Program-made: the position numbers and the translations under genes | Notes under the pieces: generated by a model | The model's database searches: none | The model's input: only the letters and a program-made list of their open reading frames with translations | What the model was told of the DNA's origin: nothing | Part shown: positions 3,744-13,840 of the stretch, one piece after another | Layout of the letters: every line of letters begins with the position of its first letter | Position numbering within the stretch: the first letter of the stretch is position 1 | Assembly (NCBI RefSeq): GCF_000039765.1 | Contig: NC_004460.2 | Coordinates: forward strand, 630,001-662,000 | Reading direction: 5' to 3' | Source of the DNA: Vibrio vulnificus CMCP6 | GTDB taxonomy: Bacteria > Pseudomonadota > Gammaproteobacteria > Enterobacterales > Vibrionaceae | Length of the DNA stretch: 32,000 nt

Positions 3744-4721
3744 ATGAAAAAGGCAGCTTTAGCAACCGCAATCCTATCCGCAGTGGTCACCGGGTCATCT
3801 TTCGCAGCAACCGTTTATAAAACAGACGGTACTGAGCTAAAAATTGGTGGGCGCGTTGAGTTCCGTGGTGATTTCATTGGTACCGACAAAGGTGTTGAGA
3901 TCGACGGCACCATGGAAGACAGCACTCGTGCGCGTCTTAACGTAAAAGGCACCACTGACCTTGGTAACGATCTACAAGCCTTTGGTTTTTACGAAGCTGA
4001 GCAGAAAACAGGCGAAAGCAGTTTCAAAAACCGTTACATGTACGCAGGTGTGAAGACAAACGCAGGTGCGTTTTCTGTTGGTAAGCAAGATATGGCTTCT
4101 GTCATCGTTTCAGACCTGACGGATATTACCGAGTTTTCTGGCGTGCAGCAGTTCATTGATGCGTCATCAGACAAAACAGACAGCACGTTTGCCTATCGCG
4201 GCAGCTTCGATGCTCTACAAATTGAAGCCACTTATTCAGCAAGCGACGCTGACAATAGCGACCTGATGGGCATCAGTGGCCTTTACTCTCTTCCTATCGG
4301 TCTGGATCTGGGTTTGGCTTACTCCACAGGTGATAACGGTGCTGGCAACGGTAGCCAAAACCAGATCCTTGTCGGTGCAGGCTATACCTTAAACGATCTT
4401 TATCTAGGTGCGACTTTCTCGACGGGTGATCTCGATGACAAAGCGAAACAAGAATTCACCGCCTACGAAATTGCGGTTCAGTACAAAATCAGCAAACCAT
4501 TTAGCGTTGCCGCGATGTACACTTTCGCCGAAGAAGACGATAACGGTACTAAATCGGACGCAACTAAAGGTCTCGAGTTGGTGGGTTACTACAAGCTAAA
4601 CAGCAACTTTCGCACTTACTTGTCTTACTACCTCAACAAGCTTGATGATGTAAAAGACGTAAACGGCAAAGTCACTTCTGGGGAAGACACACTTCGACTT
4701 GGCGTACGCTACGATTTCTAA
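3744..4721 (+). CDS. Outer-membrane porin (second paralogue-like porin)
   Basis: 325 aa. It has a signal peptide MKKAALATAILSAVVTGSSFA, the N-terminal 'TVYKTDGTELKIGGRVE' porin start and a C-terminal 'LRLGVRYDF' beta-signal. Confidence 0.88.
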   Translation: MKKAALATAILSAVVTGSSFAATVYKTDGTELKIGGRVEFRGDFIGTDKGVEIDGTMEDSTRARLNVKGTTDLGNDLQAFGFYEAEQKTGESSFKNRYMYAGVKTNAGAFSVGKQDMASVIVSDLTDITEFSGVQQFIDASSDKTDSTFAYRGSFDALQIEATYSASDADNSDLMGISGLYSLPIGLDLGLAYSTGDNGAGNGSQNQILVGAGYTLNDLYLGATFSTGDLDDKAKQEFTAYEIAVQYKISKPFSVAAMYTFAEEDDNGTKSDATKGLELVGYYKLNSNFRTYLSYYLNKLDDVKDVNGKVTSGEDTLRLGVRYDF

Positions 4722-4786: not shown

Positions 4787-4912
4787 ATACCCTTCCTACT
4801 TGAAGCTGCAGCGGTGTTGGCTGCATTCGTTCACCCCAATCACATAGCGTATCTATGCTCATGGGGATTCACTCATTTGCCGCCTACCTGCAACTTCAAG
4901 TTGTTTGGGTAT
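4787..4912. repeat. ERIC/IRU-like intergenic palindromic repeat (~126 bp)
   Basis: The reverse complement of 4826-4875 reads GTGAATCCCCATGAGCATAGATACGCTATGTGATTGGGGTGAACG. This closely parallels the ERIC core GTGAATCCCCAGGAGCTTACATAAGTAAGTGACTGGGGTGAGCG. The outer arms atacccttcctacttgaagctgcag (4787-) and ctgcaacttcaagttgtttgggtat (-4912) are imperfect inverted repeats. Confidence 0.8.
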
Positions 4913-5130
4913 ATCTTGTGTGAATCGACTCGAATTAATTTGTAATTGTGAAGTTAATTATATTTATCGCGATAATAACAGTGCTAGTTTAGAGGTGATT
5001 TTCATTTTGTTTTATATACTTAATGGAAATCTATCAATCATCTTGTCTGAGCGCCGACCAGATAGAGATAAAAGCGTTTTGATATAGCACAACAAAACAC
5101 CATACTATATAATCCAAACCGAGGATATTT

Positions 5131-6906
5131 ATGGTAGATGGCAGAAGTAAAATCGTGGCAAACTCGAAAGTAGTATTGATATTAAAGGCCGCCTATATTG
5201 TGGCGGTATTGTTGATCACGCAAACCTTGGTGAACGAACACACCCTATTGCCTTGGTCTTACGTGTTGTTTGCCATTACCATGATTGTGGCGCTCTTTTC
5301 TCCATCCCACAAAATCAAATATGTGTGCGCTTTGATCGCCACGAGTTACCTTTTTGTCGGCGGCATCGTCGATCCTCTCGATATTGACGTCATTGAAGAG
5401 ACATTTATTCTCCTCCCGCTTTGCTATCTTTTATTGTTCCCCGGAACCATTTGGGCATTTGTCGTCGCCTTATTATTGACGGCAAGCTATTTTTATACGG
5501 TTCCACCAGAGGGCTTGGATGAGCTCATTGAAGATGCCATTGAATTGTTGGTGATTTCCACCTTCGCGTCCATCATGGTCTACTATCAGCAGAAGTTTTA
5601 CCTGCAATTAACCAAATACCGAGAAGACAGCCGAACGGATTACTTGACGCAACTGCCAAACCGCCGAGCCTTTTACTCGGATCTGAATCAGGTCGAAAGT
5701 TTGGCTCAGCAAGGGCGAAACTGTGCGCTCCTCAAAATAGATATTGATGCCTTTAAAGAGATCAACGAGAGCTTTGGCCACGAACAAGCGGATCTCCTGT
5801 TAAAACGCTTTTCTCGTCGTTTGCGAAAAAACACCCTTGGCTTTGGCCAAGTCTATCGTATGGAAGGGGACGAATTCGCTGTGCTGGTGTACGAGAAACA
5901 CAGCATTAATGATGAAGTCGATGCGCTGCTCGATAAACTCAAAAGAGCACTTACAGCAGCGTTTGAACTGGAACGAGGCTCTTATCAAATCTCCTACGCG
6001 ACCGGTATTGCTCTGTTTAATGAGTCCATGACTAACCTCGATATATGGCTAAGAAACAGCGACATTGCGGCGCAAAAAGCCAAGACACGTGGCCGCGGCC
6101 AAGTCCGTTGGTACGACGAAGCCCTATTGGACGAAACCATCCGTCAACACCAGATTGAACGAGAGCTCGACAAAGCCATTGAACTGAAACAGTTTTCCTT
6201 GGTTTATCAGCCAAAAGTATCCATCACAACAGGAGAAATTACCGGCGCTGAAGCGTTAATTCGCTGGCAACATCCAGAACTAGGCACCATAACACCTTTT
6301 GAATTCATCACCATTGCCGAGAAAACCAAGCAGATCATTCCAATTGGTCGCTGGGTGATTCTCGAGGCGTGTCAACAAGCCAAGAAATGGTTGGATTTGG
6401 GCTACAAGATCCCTGTCTCGGTCAATGTCTCAACCGTACAATTTGCTCATGACGATATCGAACTGCAAGTCAGAACCGCTCTGGCGGAGTCTCACCTTCC
6501 CGCCAGTTATCTGCAACTGGAGATCACCGAAACGGTACTAATGAAGGAGCCGAAGAAGCTCATCGAGATTTGTCATAATTTGCGGTGTGAAGGAGTCACC
6601 GTTGCAATCGATGATTTTGGCATCGCCTACTCCTCGTTGAACTATCTCAAACAACTGCCCATTGACGTGTTGAAAATCGACAAAGCCTTCATTGATGATT
6701 GTGTCGACAATCACCACGATCACATGCTGGTCAGAACCATTGTTCAACTTGGCCACAACATGGACAAAAAAGTCATCGCAGAAGGCGTGGAAACCGAAGA
6801 GCAGCGCTTATTGCTTGTCAGCGAGCAATGCGATGAGTTCCAAGGTTATCTCTACTCCAAACCCCTTGATGTGGAAGAGTTTAACCGCCAGTTACTGCAA
6901 ATTTAG
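5131..6906 (+). CDS. Membrane-bound GGDEF-EAL c-di-GMP turnover protein (degenerate 'EGDEF' A-site, intact EAL); likely a phosphodiesterase
   Basis: 591 aa. The N-terminal ~150 aa is hydrophobic with several TM helices. The GGDEF domain carries 'YRMEGDEFAV'. The EAL domain has EALIRW, EITE, DDFGIAYSSLNYL, KIDKAF, EGVETEEQ and QGYLYSKP. Confidence 0.9.
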   Translation: MVDGRSKIVANSKVVLILKAAYIVAVLLITQTLVNEHTLLPWSYVLFAITMIVALFSPSHKIKYVCALIATSYLFVGGIVDPLDIDVIEETFILLPLCYLLLFPGTIWAFVVALLLTASYFYTVPPEGLDELIEDAIELLVISTFASIMVYYQQKFYLQLTKYREDSRTDYLTQLPNRRAFYSDLNQVESLAQQGRNCALLKIDIDAFKEINESFGHEQADLLLKRFSRRLRKNTLGFGQVYRMEGDEFAVLVYEKHSINDEVDALLDKLKRALTAAFELERGSYQISYATGIALFNESMTNLDIWLRNSDIAAQKAKTRGRGQVRWYDEALLDETIRQHQIERELDKAIELKQFSLVYQPKVSITTGEITGAEALIRWQHPELGTITPFEFITIAEKTKQIIPIGRWVILEACQQAKKWLDLGYKIPVSVNVSTVQFAHDDIELQVRTALAESHLPASYLQLEITETVLMKEPKKLIEICHNLRCEGVTVAIDDFGIAYSSLNYLKQLPIDVLKIDKAFIDDCVDNHHDHMLVRTIVQLGHNMDKKVIAEGVETEEQRLLLVSEQCDEFQGYLYSKPLDVEEFNRQLLQI

Positions 6907-6915
6907 CTTTCCCTT

Positions 6916-6984
6916 TCACCATGTTTCCTTTTGCACCATGTTTCCTTTGCACCATGATTGTCGCCTTTTGAATGGTTATGGTGC
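6916..6984. repeat. Cluster of (T)GCACCAT motifs (three direct, one inverted); candidate enhancer/UAS for the sigma54 promoter downstream
   Basis: Direct copies are tcaccatgtttcctt (6916-6930), tgcaccatgtttcctt (6932-6947) and tgcaccatgattg (6948-6960). An inverted atggtgc lies at 6978-6984. The direct copies are 16-17 bp apart. Confidence 0.55.
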
Positions 6985-7036
6985 GGCTTTGGGATACTCA
7001 AAAATCCAAAACTAACAAAATCAACAACTTAAAAAC

Positions 7037-7052
7037 TGGCACAGCTTCTGCA
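7037..7052 (+). promoter_or_regulatory. Sigma54 (RpoN) -24/-12 promoter
   Basis: TGGCACagcttcTGCA has GG and GC at the canonical spacing of the consensus TGGCAC-N5-TTGCA. An exact match to the IHF consensus WATCAANNNNTTR (AATCAACAACTTA, 7019-7031) lies just upstream. Confidence 0.65.
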
Positions 7053-7062
7053 ATGATAGATG

Positions 7063-7163
7063 TACAAATGCATGGCAGCGTTTGTGCTTCTCGTTCTTAT
7101 CCTCCTCACCGAGGTACGTCCTTTAATCCGCATTTGCGCCCCTGAATTCAGGGGCTTCTTTTT
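7063..7163 (+). ncRNA. Candidate ~100-nt sigma54-dependent small RNA; the 5' end is inferred, not observed
   Basis: The interval is bounded by the sigma54 promoter (7037-7052) and the terminator (7138-7163). It contains a C/U-rich CCUCCUC tract (7101-7107). The 5' caaatgc (7065-7071) is complementary to gcatttg (7130-7136). No convincing SD-led ORF is present. Confidence 0.45.
7138..7163 (+). terminator. Intrinsic terminator (18-nt perfect palindrome plus U-run)
   Basis: gcccctgaattcaggggc (7138-7155) is followed by ttcttttt (7156-7163). Confidence 0.85.
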
Positions 7164-7243
7164 ACCCCGTTCGCCGCAAAACATTTGGCTTCGCCATGCA
7201 GAAAACGTATGATTCTCGGACTTTTTTGTGAATTCGATTATCT

Positions 7244-8122
7244 ATGCAATCTCAACACCACCCAATTCTTGGCGCGTCGTGGATGCTGACCGCTGGTTTA
7301 GCTTTCGCTATCGTCAACAGCCTGGCGCAAGTTGCCAGCATTCAATTTGCCATTCCGTCAACCACTGTTGCGCTGATTCAATATGGCATCGCTTTAATTG
7401 TGATTTTGCCGTACTTAAAAACGCTGGGCATTCGCCAATCGCTGCGCACCTCTCATTTTGGCTGGCATGCACTGCGAGTCTTTTTGTCGGTTATCGGTAT
7501 CCAGCTTTGGCTTTGGGCACTCGCTTATCCGGTGCCGATTTGGCAAGGCATCGCGCTATTAATGACTTCCCCACTCTTTGCGACGATCGGCTCAGGGCTG
7601 CTTCTGAAAGAGAAAGTGGGTGTGGCACGCTGGGGCGCGACGCTGTTCGGTTTCATTGGTGCGATGATCATTCTTGAGCCTTGGGCGGATGATTTTCATC
7701 TTGCGACCTTACTGCCTGTCGGCGCTGCCTTCTTTTGGGCATGTTATTCACTGATGGTTAAAAAGCTCTCGGTCAACGATCCACCCTCCACCATGGTGGT
7801 TTATCTGCTGCTGTTGATTACGCCATTCAACATCATGCTGGCGATTCCTGATTTCACAATGCCGAGCAGTACGACCATTTGGCTGATCCTTTTTGCCGCG
7901 GGCTGCATGACTGCACTGGCACAATGGGCCATCGTCAAAGCTTATGCCAGTGCCGATGCCTCCTTTGTTCAGCCTTTTGATCACGCTAAACTGCCATTGA
8001 ACGTACTTGCAGGTTGGCTTGTATTTGGTTGGGTGCCACCGGGCAGACTTTGGCTTGGTGCCTTCATCATTATTGCTTCTGTCGCCTTTATTACTCATTG
8101 GGAAACCAAAAAAACAAAATAG
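7244..8122 (+). CDS. EamA/DMT-superfamily transporter (10-TM, RhaT-like)
   Basis: 292 aa. It is uniformly hydrophobic with two EamA-like halves. The overlapping 7228-7677 ORF is in another frame and is not membrane-like. Confidence 0.85.
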   Translation: MQSQHHPILGASWMLTAGLAFAIVNSLAQVASIQFAIPSTTVALIQYGIALIVILPYLKTLGIRQSLRTSHFGWHALRVFLSVIGIQLWLWALAYPVPIWQGIALLMTSPLFATIGSGLLLKEKVGVARWGATLFGFIGAMIILEPWADDFHLATLLPVGAAFFWACYSLMVKKLSVNDPPSTMVVYLLLLITPFNIMLAIPDFTMPSSTTIWLILFAAGCMTALAQWAIVKAYASADASFVQPFDHAKLPLNVLAGWLVFGWVPPGRLWLGAFIIIASVAFITHWETKKTK

Positions 8123-8186: not shown

Positions 8187-8792
8187 ATGAGTGAAGCGAT
8201 TAAAATCACCCTGTACCGTTGGGCGGGAAGTTGGGGACCATTTAAAGTCAACATCCCATGTGGTGAGTGTACGTTAACCAAAGATATCTTAACCGATACG
8301 TTTGCCAATGAACTTAACGGTATTCCTGTTGAATTGGAAGTCAAAGACTGGCTTTCTCACTGGTGGGAGCCGTTAAAGCTCGGCGCTTGGCATGCGCCTA
8401 TTTTGGTGGTTGAAGGCAAAGTGATTAGCCAAGGTGAAGCCCTTAACCGTGGCGTGCTCATTCAATCTGTGATCAAAGAGTGGACAAAGCGCGACACCCT
8501 TAAAGGGAATATTGTTTTTGGTAAAGCGACCTGCCCTTACTGTGTAAAAGCCAAGCAGCTTTTGGATTCGGCGGGCATTCACTACCAATATCACGATGTC
8601 GTCAAAGAAAGCGCCGCGCTGTATCGTATGATTCCAGAAGTCAAAGCCATTATTGGCGAAAAAACGCCCGTCACCGTACCACAAATTTGGTTAGATGGTT
8701 CGTACATTGGGGGTTGCGACAAGCTGGAAGTCTATCTTAAAGAGCGTGGGCTTGATGTCGTTCCGAACAATGTGGTGGAGATGGCAAACTGA
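8187..8792 (+). CDS. Two-domain glutaredoxin-family protein (N-terminal CGEC domain plus C-terminal CPYC glutaredoxin)
   Basis: 201 aa. The C-terminal half is classical Grx (IVFGKATCPYCVKAKQLL...TVPQIWLDGSYIGGCD). The N-terminal ~100 aa carries a second CxxC (NIPCGECTL). A GAGGA SD lies 8 nt upstream. Confidence 0.88.
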   Translation: MSEAIKITLYRWAGSWGPFKVNIPCGECTLTKDILTDTFANELNGIPVELEVKDWLSHWWEPLKLGAWHAPILVVEGKVISQGEALNRGVLIQSVIKEWTKRDTLKGNIVFGKATCPYCVKAKQLLDSAGIHYQYHDVVKESAALYRMIPEVKAIIGEKTPVTVPQIWLDGSYIGGCDKLEVYLKERGLDVVPNNVVEMAN

Positions 8793-8885: not shown

Positions 8886-9020
8886 TTATTTTGCCATTTT
8901 CTTTAGCATGCGGCTGATAAATGACGCTTTCTTCTTCGCTGTCTTGCCATACATAGCTTTGTGCATTGCGTCTTTTGCCATCATTTGACCGATGTAAGCA
9001 CCGCCTAATTCATAACCCAT
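8886..9020 (-). CDS. Small basic protein, 44 aa (below the ORF-track cutoff), function unknown
   Basis: Hand translation gives MGYELGGAYIGQMMAKDAMHKAMYGKTAKKKASFISRMLKKMAK*. A GGAGA SD lies 7 nt upstream of the ATG (reverse complement of 9021-9035 is cattggagaatcaag). The bidirectional terminator is ~40 nt downstream. Confidence 0.55.
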   Translation of the reverse strand: MGYELGGAYIGQMMAKDAMHKAMYGKTAKKKASFISRMLKKMAK

Positions 9021-11950: not shown

Positions 11951-13840
11951 ATGCAACAAAAGTGTCACTATTATAATAATCAGGTAGAGAAACGTCAGAT
12001 GAATGATTCAACGCTCCAAGCTTGCATCGATTTAGATGAGCTTATTCATACTCTATCTCTCGACGGTAGCGAGCTGCTCAATCAAGTTACGCTCAAGCTG
12101 CATTCCACTTTAAGCTCGTACTGCACCTGTATCGTAGAGATAGATCTGCACCACAACCATGCCAATACCTTGGCTTATGCAAAAGAGGGAAGCAACGTTA
12201 ACGCTGCGCGTTATAGCTTAGAAAATACGCCATTTGAACGCATCGCTCTCAAGGTGATCGAGCACTGTCATCTGATTCAAGACAACGTCCCTGACAGCTA
12301 TTTCTCACTAGAAGAAGGGCTAGAATTTACCGAAGCGGGCGTGCATGCGTTTGTCGGCATTCCACTGCGCGGCCATAATGGCGATATTTTGGGTATTCTG
12401 GTTTCCACATTTGGATTTAAACCTCACGACCCTCAGTTAATACTCAAATATCACCGCATATACGCCAACATCATTATTCACGGTTTACGAGAAAAGTGGC
12501 TAAGTGATCGCTCTGATCAGTTGGTGAATCAACTCAGTTACGAAGTCTCACACGATAATTTGACCGGATTACTTAACCGCAGTTGCCTTTCGGATACCTT
12601 GGAAACCCTTACCCAGCAATCCGATCGCCCATTTAGCCTCGTTTGCATCGATATCGATAACTTCAAATTAATCAACGACATTCACGGCACCTACATTGGT
12701 GACCAAATCATCAAGTTTACTGCGCATGCCATTCAATCCGCACTGCCCACCCCTGCCTTGGCGTACCGAGTGGCGGGTGATGAGTTTGCTTTTATCACTT
12801 ATTCCGAAACGCCAGAGGAGGTGTGCGAGCACATACTGAATAAGATTGCGTTTGGCTATCAAGACAACGCCAATCACGTTCGATTTGACATCAGCATCGG
12901 CATCGCCAAAGCAAGCCAACGTCTTATTACGAGTGATGAGTTATTTCTCAACGCCAGCCTTGCGATGAAAGAGTGTAAAAAGCACCCTAACAATCGTATT
13001 CGCTGCTATGACACCCATTTAAGCGCGCTATACCATCGAAAAACACAGTTAATCGAAGCCATACGCGAGCAACTGGCGAAGCCTATCGATGAGGTAACAG
13101 AGATTTACGTGGCGATTCAGCCGATCGTCAACGTGCATAAACCACGTTGGGATTATTTTGAAGTGTTGGCGCGTTGGGACAGTGCCGAATATGGCTCAAT
13201 TTCGCCCGTTGAGTTTATTGATGCCGCCGAGCAATCAGGGCTCATTGTTCAGTTAGGAGAGCGGATCATCGAGCTCGCTTGCCGAGCAAAAAACTACTTG
13301 GAAGAATCGTTAGGTTATCGGGTGAAACTTGGCGTCAACTGTTCTGCGTATGAACTGAATGATGAAGAGCGATACCTTAATTACCTCAATAAGATGATGC
13401 AAAAGTATCATCTCGATCCCCGTGATTTCGTGATTGAACTTACAGAAACGGTGTTACTGACTCAAACGGGTAAAGAGCACATGGTGCTGGATGCACTAAG
13501 AGATCGCGGTTTCAAAGTGGCACTCGACGATTTCGGCACGGGTTACTCAAGCTTGAATTACATTCACAGCTACCCCATCGACACGATAAAAATCGACGCC
13601 AGCTTTATACGTAATATGCTTTGTAACGACACCGCTGAGCGCGTGGTGTGGCTTATCACACAACTGGCCTTACAACTTAAGGTGAATTTAGTCGCTGAAG
13701 GGGTTGAAGAAGAGCTGGCGTTGAAAAAATTGGTCGATATGGGATGCGAGCAGATCCAAGGCTATTACTATTCTCGTCCAATGAAACCAAGCCGAATCGT
13801 AGACAAACTGAGTGCCAAGCAGATCAAAAGCGCCTCTTAG
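11951..13840 (+). CDS. Cytoplasmic GAF-GGDEF-EAL protein (degenerate 'AGDEF'; EAL motif reads 'EVL'); likely a c-di-GMP phosphodiesterase
   Basis: 629 aa as tracked. It has a GAF-like N-terminus (…AFVGIPLRGHNGDILGILVS…), a GGDEF domain with 'YRVAGDEFAF', and an EAL domain with EVLARW, ELTE, DDFGTGYSSLNYI, KIDASF, EGVEEE and QGYYYSRP. The true start may be the ATG at 11999 (MNDSTLQ), which has aGGtAGAG ~10 nt upstream. Confidence 0.88.
   Translation: MQQKCHYYNNQVEKRQMNDSTLQACIDLDELIHTLSLDGSELLNQVTLKLHSTLSSYCTCIVEIDLHHNHANTLAYAKEGSNVNAARYSLENTPFERIALKVIEHCHLIQDNVPDSYFSLEEGLEFTEAGVHAFVGIPLRGHNGDILGILVSTFGFKPHDPQLILKYHRIYANIIIHGLREKWLSDRSDQLVNQLSYEVSHDNLTGLLNRSCLSDTLETLTQQSDRPFSLVCIDIDNFKLINDIHGTYIGDQIIKFTAHAIQSALPTPALAYRVAGDEFAFITYSETPEEVCEHILNKIAFGYQDNANHVRFDISIGIAKASQRLITSDELFLNASLAMKECKKHPNNRIRCYDTHLSALYHRKTQLIEAIREQLAKPIDEVTEIYVAIQPIVNVHKPRWDYFEVLARWDSAEYGSISPVEFIDAAEQSGLIVQLGERIIELACRAKNYLEESLGYRVKLGVNCSAYELNDEERYLNYLNKMMQKYHLDPRDFVIELTETVLLTQTGKEHMVLDALRDRGFKVALDDFGTGYSSLNYIHSYPIDTIKIDASFIRNMLCNDTAERVVWLITQLALQLKVNLVAEGVEEELALKKLVDMGCEQIQGYYYSRPMKPSRIVDKLSAKQIKSAS

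Follow-up and report, generated by a model that had tools for sequence, protein, structure and literature searches.

A candidate gene for a sigma-54-type small regulatory RNA upstream of an EamA transporter gene on Vibrio vulnificus chromosome II

Identification of a conserved candidate small RNA gene

The 32,000-nucleotide (nt) stretch of Vibrio vulnificus CMCP6 chromosome II analyzed here (NC_004460.2, positions 630,001 to 662,000, hereafter the window) contains a 337-bp intergenic gap between the stop codon of a GGDEF-EAL gene (6906) and the ATG codon of an EamA transporter gene (7244). This gap probably harbors a self-contained gene for a trans-acting regulatory small RNA (sRNA) of approximately 100 nt with a sigma-54-type promoter, a reading that we hold with good confidence. 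The original prediction, made from the letters of the window, had listed in this gap a repeat array, an IHF site, a -24/-12 element and an intrinsic terminator, and all of these elements were indeed read where they had been placed. The comparison of related sequences established the conservation of the whole unit, the constancy of the promoter dinucleotides, the covariation of the stems and the independence from the EamA gene. The RNA gene is thus well supported, and is apparently undescribed.

The EamA locus was compared across the genomes of 80 Vibrionaceae species (loci L001-L080), and metagenome contigs were scanned for an 18-nt core of the RNA (GGCAGCGTTTGTGCTTCT), which gave mostly chance matches together with 18 true homologs. 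A covariance model, R1, built from 13 sequences scored 32 homologs at 46-114 bits, and these homologs were found in 13 GTDB species genomes and on 18 metagenome contigs. Apart from a deletion relic (L065, 28.8 bits) and a borderline match (L005, 15.8 bits, E 0.95), R1 detected nothing in the remaining EamA loci. The RNA was present in V. vulnificus and V. floridensis, V. anguillarum and V. aestuarianus, V. plantisponsor-like species, V. paucivorans, and the Harveyi clade including V. harveyi, V. owensii, V. rotiferianus and their relatives. The same order was conserved in the 32 Vibrio loci, namely activator boxes (-130 to -85), AT-rich or IHF-like DNA, a sigma-54 element, an approximately 100-nt RNA with three hairpins, and a terminator. 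Among ten strains of V. vulnificus, the RNA was identical except for one base in the terminator loop.

The promoter and the RNA were placed as follows.

7037-7052, plus strand: predicted sigma-54 (-24/-12) promoter, TGGCAC-AGCTT-CTGCA (GG, 7038-7039; GC, 7050-7051), identified by sequence match and conservation.
7063-7163, plus strand: predicted sRNA of approximately 101 nt, the start being set 12 nt downstream of the -12 C, and the last U of the terminator tract being taken as the 3' end.

The GG at -24 and the GC at -12 are separated by exactly 10 nt, as in the sigma-54 consensus TGGCAC-N5-TTGCW. The pattern TGGCACN5YTGCW matched the 32 kb only at this position, against 0.07 matches expected. 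The corresponding element, TGGCA[C/T]-N5-nTGC[A/T], was present in all of the 30 distinct homologous upstream regions in 19 sequence versions, in which the GG and GC dinucleotides (GG-N10-GC) stayed constant while the spacer and the flanks varied. A functional -24/-12 promoter would be expected to show just such constancy amid varying bases. The distance between the element and the RNA core was also nearly constant (22-27 nt) in these regions. The free-standing sRNA gene of sigma-54 type that had been proposed was therefore supported by the 32 homologs, by the fixed distance of GG-N10-GC from the 5' hairpin and by the covarying stems described below.

Structure of the predicted RNA

The predicted RNA folded with a minimum free energy (MFE) of -32.9 kcal/mol (z = -4.3 versus shuffled sequences), and its start at approximately 7063 fell exactly at the foot of the 5' hairpin. 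Its parts are the following.

7062-7087, plus strand: hairpin 1 at the 5' end, GUACAAAUGC-AUGGCA-GCGUUUGUGC, from folding and covariance; helix 1 was 95.7% paired, with double changes at four pairs.
7088-7100, plus strand: single-stranded C/U-rich stretch UUCUCGUUCUUAU, consensus GUGCUUCUyKUUC, conserved and unpaired in most of 19 distinct MFE folds.
7101-7114, plus strand: hairpin 2, CCUC-CUCACC-GAGG, in which the sequence varies and the pairing is kept.
7116-7124, plus strand: another conserved unpaired motif, ACGUCCUUU (in other clades AUGUUCUUU), from the alignment and folds.
7138-7163, plus strand: intrinsic terminator, GCCCCUGA-AU-UCAGGGGC followed by UUCUUUUU, from a terminator scan; helix 2 of the covariance analysis was 96.4% paired, with double changes at four pairs.

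In each of the 19 distinct homologs, the three-hairpin fold was at or near the energy minimum. The covariation expected in the orthologous intergenic regions was examined with a model-based alignment, which, being fitted to the model, leaned somewhat towards structure. In this alignment 96% of the cells paired and eight of the 15 pairs showed compensatory double changes, values that were reached by none of 500 shuffles, and the signal was lost when the pairing partners were slid. Independent evidence for a conserved structure was given by hairpin 2, which occurred in at least eight sequence versions, all of them able to pair (CCUC/GAGG, CCUAC/GUAGG, CCUGC/GCAGG, CCUGU/ACAGG, CAGUGUU/AACACUG, CAGUGCU/AGCACUG, CAGUGAU/AUCACUG and CGUCAC/GUGACG). 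The terminator stem (7138-7155) has seven pairs, six of which are G-C, and its U-tract TTCTTTTT extends to 7163.

The stretch at 7088-7100 is the most likely seed for pairing with other RNAs, and the motif ACGUCCUUU at 7116-7124 could be a second seed or a contact for Hfq. These conserved single-stranded stretches, the terminator and the RNA's own predicted promoter are the structural features expected of an Hfq-type sRNA, and Hfq probably binds the RNA through the 3' U-tail. The tract CCUCCUC (7101-7107), to which pairing with ribosome-binding sites had been ascribed, forms the 5' arm of hairpin 2 and was replaced by other sequences elsewhere; it was ruled out as a seed because it lies in a stem and is not conserved. 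The 7-nt complementarity noticed earlier between the two ends of the RNA (7065-7071 with 7130-7136) does exist, but was absent outside the V. vulnificus/floridensis group. Pairing of the ends was rejected because it is clade-specific, and the 5' segment that it would need is already taken up by the conserved hairpin 1.

The sequence of hairpin 1 was constant in 31 of the 32 homologs, V. paucivorans having a different hairpin there (GUUAUC/GAUAAC). Inside this hairpin, 36 nt downstream of the main promoter, lies a looser sigma-54-like string, TGGCAG-CGTTT-GTGCT (GG-N10-GC, 7073-7088), which was likewise constant in 31 of the 32 homologs. The loose pattern TGGCA-N7-TGC, of which 7073-7087 is one match, occurred eight times in the window against 2.3 expected. 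The string may be due to chance; even so, it might be one reason why hairpin 1 is so unusually constant in sequence.

Upstream activator region

Upstream of the promoter, three features were recognized between the EAL stop codon and the -24 element.

6908-6959, plus strand: tandem 16-17-bp unit (TTTCCTTTGCACCATG; three copies, the first degenerate) carrying TGCACCAT boxes, found by repeat search; the distal part, variable in copy number.
6948-6985, no strand assigned: constant core of the putative activator region, approximately -115 to -78, consisting of TGCACCATGATTGTCGC and TGAATGGTTATGGTGCG, two 17-mers 20 bp apart.
7019-7031, plus strand: IHF-consensus site AATCAACAACTTA, approximately -44 to -32, an exact match to WATCAANNNNTTR in the AT-rich DNA that separates the activator sites from the promoter.

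The box TGCACCAT was found at 6932-6939 and 6948-6955, and an inverted copy, ATGGTGC, at 6978-6984. The original prediction had described three direct copies and one inverted copy of the box; direct and inverted copies are present, but the first copy (6916-6922) reads TCACCAT, with T instead of G, and a fixed array of three did not hold up, as the 16-bp unit was present in one, two or three copies among the ten V. vulnificus strains and in two copies in V. floridensis (L001). The occurrence of TGCACCAT in the window (three against 1.55 expected) was not rarer than chance, and the weight of these boxes as evidence lies in their clustering and their conservation across species. The activator core (TGCACCATGATTGTCGC and TGAATGGTTATGGTGCG) was kept in all V. 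vulnificus strains compared, and its outer arms, GCACCAT and ATGGTGC, are perfect inverted copies of each other over 7 bp. In every clade, boxes of the TGCAC type (TGC-N11-GCA-type) were conserved in position between -130 and -80.

The known enhancer of NtrC consists of two or more 17-bp dyads of the form (T)GCA(CC)AnnnT(GG)TGC(A) (PMC8743547). The E. coli NtrC box TGCACCAnnnTGGTGCA, in which GCAnnA and TnnTGC are the best-conserved positions (PMC8743547), was used as the reference for scoring. The best NtrC-box-like 17-mers scored 9-11 out of 14 across the clades, were located at the same positions within clades (-124, -113 and -107/-103), and exceeded shuffled controls in most clades. Upstream regions typically held two such 17-mers, 20-21 bp apart. 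The half-site resemblance to NtrC-type sites seen earlier was confirmed, the window boxes being perfect half-sites of this kind (TGCACCA twice and TGGTGC(G)), but a full dyad was not found, the best 17-mer in the window scoring 10 out of 14 and those of other clades up to 11. The activator is likely to be a protein of the NtrC family. NtrC itself is the leading single candidate, if a tentative one that takes roughly a third of our expectation.

The IHF match reported earlier is exact; on its own, it is no more than chance would give, since two matches to the consensus were found in the window against 2.0 expected. An exact site was located at -43 in ten of the 30 distinct homologous upstream regions, those of the vulnificus and Harveyi clades, and an eleventh region (L098) had a reverse-strand match at -56. 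In other clades, this position was only AT-rich (60-88% A+T). The arrangement found, conserved boxes approximately 80-150 bp upstream with an IHF consensus or AT-rich DNA between them and the promoter, is that of an enhancer, to which protein binding is predicted.

A strain-specific change was observed beside the IHF-like site. In V. vulnificus GCA_043696935.1 (L204), the equivalent of 7012-7030 contained a 9-bp duplication (AACAAAATC AACAAAATC), which lengthens the spacer between enhancer and promoter by nearly one helical turn in that strain.

Independence from the EamA gene

The position of the unit raised the alternative that the sigma-54 promoter produces a cis-acting 5' untranslated region (UTR) of the EamA-glutaredoxin operon, in which the hairpin at 7138-7163 would serve as an attenuator and the promoter would add sigma-54-dependent expression of the transporter. 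Indeed, in 30 of the 32 loci EamA immediately follows the unit and has the same orientation, and the interrupted U-tract of the window terminator (UUCUUUUU) would make some read-through possible. A separate promoter was detected for EamA, however.

7185-7213, plus strand: predicted sigma-70-type EamA promoter, TTGGCT-N17-TATGAT, located by promoter scan between the terminator and the EamA ATG, and not part of the sRNA.

As EamA possesses this promoter of its own, its transcription would be independent of the sigma-54 promoter. The -35/-10 elements were conserved, and the -10 motif, cGTATGAT, recurred 5' of EamA in most of the Vibrionaceae loci that were inspected, including most of those without the sRNA; Splendidus-type loci and a few others showed variants of it. 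The terminators of other species carried 6-8 consecutive U. In addition, two loci retained the RNA without EamA: in L122 the EamA gene was deleted, and in L164 both EamA and the glutaredoxin gene were missing and the RNA was followed by a small convergent gene, leaving no co-oriented gene downstream. No conserved alternative anti-terminator pairing was found, because the 7-nt complementarity of the ends is limited to the V. vulnificus/floridensis group. The comparison thus disfavored the reading as an EamA 5' UTR or attenuator that had been named as a way for the original prediction to fail; we regard this alternative as improbable. A separate sRNA gene is favored instead, since the promoter assigned to EamA lies past the terminator and the RNA persists at two loci that lack EamA. 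Partial read-through into EamA may occur.

The conservation of cGTATGAT before EamA, whatever lies upstream, was stronger than a plain -10 box needs, and this region may for that reason be a binding site for a regulator as well.

Promoter assignment and coding potential

It is very unlikely that the RNA is real but is not made from the -24/-12 element, being instead transcribed with a different sigma factor or cut out of a longer transcript. In favor of this alternative, the sigma-54 dependence is a prediction from sequence. Three observations spoke against it. GG-N10-GC was constant in the 30 distinct upstream regions at a fixed distance from hairpin 1; no sigma-70-like -35/-10 promoter was predicted upstream of the RNA in a scan of this region of the window; and in other species the upstream gene, whether porin or EAL, is closed by a terminator of its own.

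The least probable alternative is a small mRNA or dual-function RNA for a short hydrophobic peptide (MAAFVLLVL...) starting at the AUG in the loop of hairpin 1 (7072): a frame starting M(Q)AAFVLL was open in most homologs, and a 1-nt deletion in the loop moved an upstream AUG into the same frame in the plantisponsor-like group, but the frame lacked a Shine-Dalgarno sequence and its AUG is separated from the predicted 5' end by only about 9 nt, the encoded peptide was anywhere between 11 and 50 aa long (18 aa in the Harveyi clade, with the V. vulnificus frame running through the terminator), the start codon was lost in V. aestuarianus (ACG) and the frame was absent in V. paucivorans, the 5' region lacked any synonymous variation, and the changes in hairpin 2 kept the RNA pairing while being non-conservative for the peptide (YFG to CYN). 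Coding was accordingly dropped as the main explanation, on the grounds of the missing Shine-Dalgarno sequence, the inconsistent length, the lost starts and the lack of synonymous variation. The earlier statement that no open reading frame (ORF) led by a Shine-Dalgarno sequence is present was correct, with the qualification that this short hydrophobic frame is nonetheless open in most homologs.

A long shot is that the constant 5' hairpin does more than seed pairing. The RNA could be a dual-function RNA that uses the loop AUG for the hydrophobic peptide, or the string at 7073-7088 could be a second sigma-54-binding site through which the holoenzyme gates or auto-limits the upstream promoter. 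If either were true, the gene would encode an unusually designed sRNA under sigma-54 control. On the most conservative form of this reading, the RNA would simply be the non-coding arm so far missing from the Ntr (nitrogen) regulon of pathogenic vibrios.

Proposed mechanism and points against it

The features described above suggest the following course of events for a trans-acting sRNA gene. A bacterial enhancer-binding protein would bind two or three TGCAC-type boxes at approximately -130 to -80, while sigma-54 RNA polymerase would wait as a closed complex on TGGCAC-N5-CTGCA (7037-7052). The AT-rich DNA, together with IHF in the vulnificus and Harveyi clades, would bend so that the activator meets the polymerase, and ATP hydrolysis by the activator would open the promoter, leading to transcription from approximately 7063 to the terminator at 7138-7163. 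The RNA would then fold into the 5' hairpin, the variable middle hairpin and the terminator hairpin, and the unpaired conserved segments GUGCUUCUCGUUCUU and ACGUCCUUU, possibly along with the constant 5' hairpin, would pair with target mRNAs. Hfq would probably assist, acting on the 3' U-tail.

As for the targets, the seed of the sigma-E-dependent sRNAs RybB, MicV and VrrA is CRCUGCUUUU (PMC6694218). The stretch GUGCUUCUCGUUCUU shares UGCUU-U with this seed and matches it at six of ten positions. Given this resemblance and the adjacency of a porin gene in most loci, envelope or porin mRNAs are a reasonable first guess as targets and are offered only as a lead. A naive scan of the window ORFs for long duplexes was uninformative.

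Several points weigh against the proposed sRNA gene or parts of it. The transcript, its ends and its dependence on rpoN are predictions, as are the Hfq dependence and the targets of the RNA. The extreme conservation of hairpin 1 is not fully explained by an sRNA, because the hairpin also holds the sigma-54-like string (7073-7088) and the start of the short hydrophobic ORF. When the 23 larger ORFs of the window (at least 150 aa) were searched for seed-type complementarity, the longest seed matches fell within the null distribution and no convincing target emerged. The mRNA of the neighboring porin was rejected as a target, as the duplex energies at its translation initiation region were no better than those of shuffled sequences at 13 loci (z -1.1 to +1.3). 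The upstream region of the window contained no NtrC dyad with three or fewer mismatches, and no LuxO-type TTGCA-N3-TGCAA site with two or fewer mismatches was found within 6880-7040. In agreement with the original prediction that no enhancer-binding protein is encoded in the window, no sigma-54 activator domain was detected in any ORF of at least 150 aa in the 32 kb, which leaves the unit with no such gene nearby. Finally, the distribution of the RNA is patchy: it was absent at the EamA locus in the cholerae clade (V. mimicus and V. metoecus), in the Splendidus and coralliilyticus clades, and in Aliivibrio.

The locus of Vibrio sp. AND4 (L065) was found to be a deletion relic (1268-1372), in which only the 3' linker and the terminator are left, flanked by the porin gene on one side and the EamA promoter on the other. 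Loss thus accounts for at least part of the patchy distribution.

Comparison with known small RNAs

In Rfam 15, no family matched the window or five homologous loci at the gathering threshold or at E <= 10; the best sub-threshold match, anti-hemB, scored 18.8 bits against a gathering score of 49.5 and was driven by the terminator. The full-text literature, with most subscription-journal papers outside the search, contained no report of the sequence or of any sigma-54-, RpoN- or NtrC-dependent Vibrio sRNA other than Qrr. A review of V. cholerae sRNAs from 2023 brings up sigma-N or LuxO solely in connection with Qrr1-4 (PMC10335731). A paper on RpoN chromatin immunoprecipitation sequencing (ChIP-seq) in V. 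cholerae mentions only flaX, which is RpoN-independent, and a paper on RpoN of V. alginolyticus contains neither ChIP-seq nor sRNA data.

Close counterparts in design are the LuxO/sigma-54- and Hfq-dependent Qrr1-5, which are likewise free-standing Vibrio genes of approximately 100 nt that combine a sigma-54 promoter and upstream activator sites with an intrinsic terminator. The RNA described here is nevertheless not Qrr, as had been predicted. It matched neither the Rfam Qrr model at the gathering threshold and E <= 10 nor any other family, and the LuxO-type site was missing upstream. Its sequence, fold and genomic location differ from those of Qrr, and it is a single-copy RNA at one locus, absent from the V. 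cholerae-clade loci examined.

The combination of a sigma-54 promoter, an IHF site and upstream activator sites driving an sRNA is also found in GlmY and GlmZ (GlrR/sigma-54) of Enterobacteriaceae, to which the present RNA showed no Rfam match. GlmY and GlmZ have overlapping sigma-70 promoters and TGTC-N10-GACA sites. An overlapping sigma-70 promoter or TGTC-N10-GACA sites were not noticed on reading the upstream region, although no search aimed at the GlrR motif was made.

Other sRNAs that depend on NtrC and sigma-54 are NrsZ of Pseudomonas aeruginosa (PMC4253122) and EsrF of E. coli O157 (PMC8092317), together with GlnZ, whose source is the glnA 3' UTR (PMC9731577). These resemble the present unit as sRNAs under a sigma-54 promoter with NtrC-type upstream boxes, that is, as a non-coding arm of the regulon of an enhancer-binding protein. 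In contrast, neither sequence nor Rfam similarity to them was found, the full 17-bp NtrC dyad is lacking here (10 out of 14 at best in the window), and the gene is not located beside ntrBC or glnA. Processing yields NrsZ out of tandem repeats and GlnZ out of the 3' end of an mRNA, whereas the present RNA is a predicted primary transcript of a single unit. With RybB, MicV and VrrA, the unit shares the adjacency to a porin gene and a C/U-rich candidate seed stretch; it differs in having a promoter of the sigma-54 rather than the sigma-E type and in the limited match to the seed (six of ten positions). By its design the unit appears to work like Qrr, GlmY/GlmZ, NrsZ and EsrF, and by sequence and structure it is none of these.

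An sRNA under a sigma-54 promoter gives an enhancer-binding protein a post-transcriptional output. If the proposed gene is real, vibrios would have, in addition to the Qrr RNAs that are central to quorum sensing, a second regulatory RNA under sigma-54 control, and one unrelated to Qrr. It would also be an unstudied post-transcriptional output of an enhancer-binding protein, which could respond to nitrogen status should that protein be NtrC. The RNA is conserved in pathogens of humans and of aquaculture, namely V. vulnificus, the Harveyi clade and V. anguillarum. Natural variants are available for comparison: strains with one to three copies of the enhancer repeat, the deletion relic of AND4, and the cholerae-clade loci that lack the RNA.

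Neighboring genes and other features of the locus

The genes around the sRNA in the window are arranged in the following order: porin (3744-4721), a V_AS5 repeat element (4790-4914, minus strand), the GGDEF-EAL gene (5131-6906), the gap containing the sRNA, EamA (7244-8122) and a glutaredoxin-domain gene (8187-8792). The EamA protein was identical in chromosome II of V. vulnificus YJ016 (BA000038.2) and in many other V. vulnificus assemblies, and was 100% identical to that of the V. floridensis representative. On the YJ016 chromosome, the RNA would be located at approximately BA000038.2:1,258,887-1,258,987, plus strand. A porin gene adjoins the sRNA gene in most loci, and was located directly 5' of the unit in the Harveyi and anguillarum clades; the GGDEF-EAL gene at 5131-6906 sits between the two only in V. 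vulnificus/floridensis. A second GGDEF-EAL gene (11951-13840) was found less than 7 kb from the first.

The element at 4790-4914 (minus strand), in the gap between the porin and GGDEF-EAL genes, was a full-length match to the Rfam family V_AS5 ("Vibrio RNA AS5") with 110 bits. The corresponding porin-side intergenic sequence of V. floridensis (L001) lacked this block of approximately 130 bp (GACTTAT|CTTGTG). As the flanking sequence exists there without the block, the latter looks like an inserted repetitive MITE/ERIC-like element and not a locus-specific antisense RNA gene.

Convergent to the EamA-glutaredoxin operon, the window also contains a conserved lysine-rich small ORF of 44-50 aa (8886-9020, minus strand; MGYELGGAYIGQMMAKDAMHKAMYGK...). 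It is an annotated gene in NCBI records, has no Pfam family, and is located directly 3' of the sRNA in locus L164.

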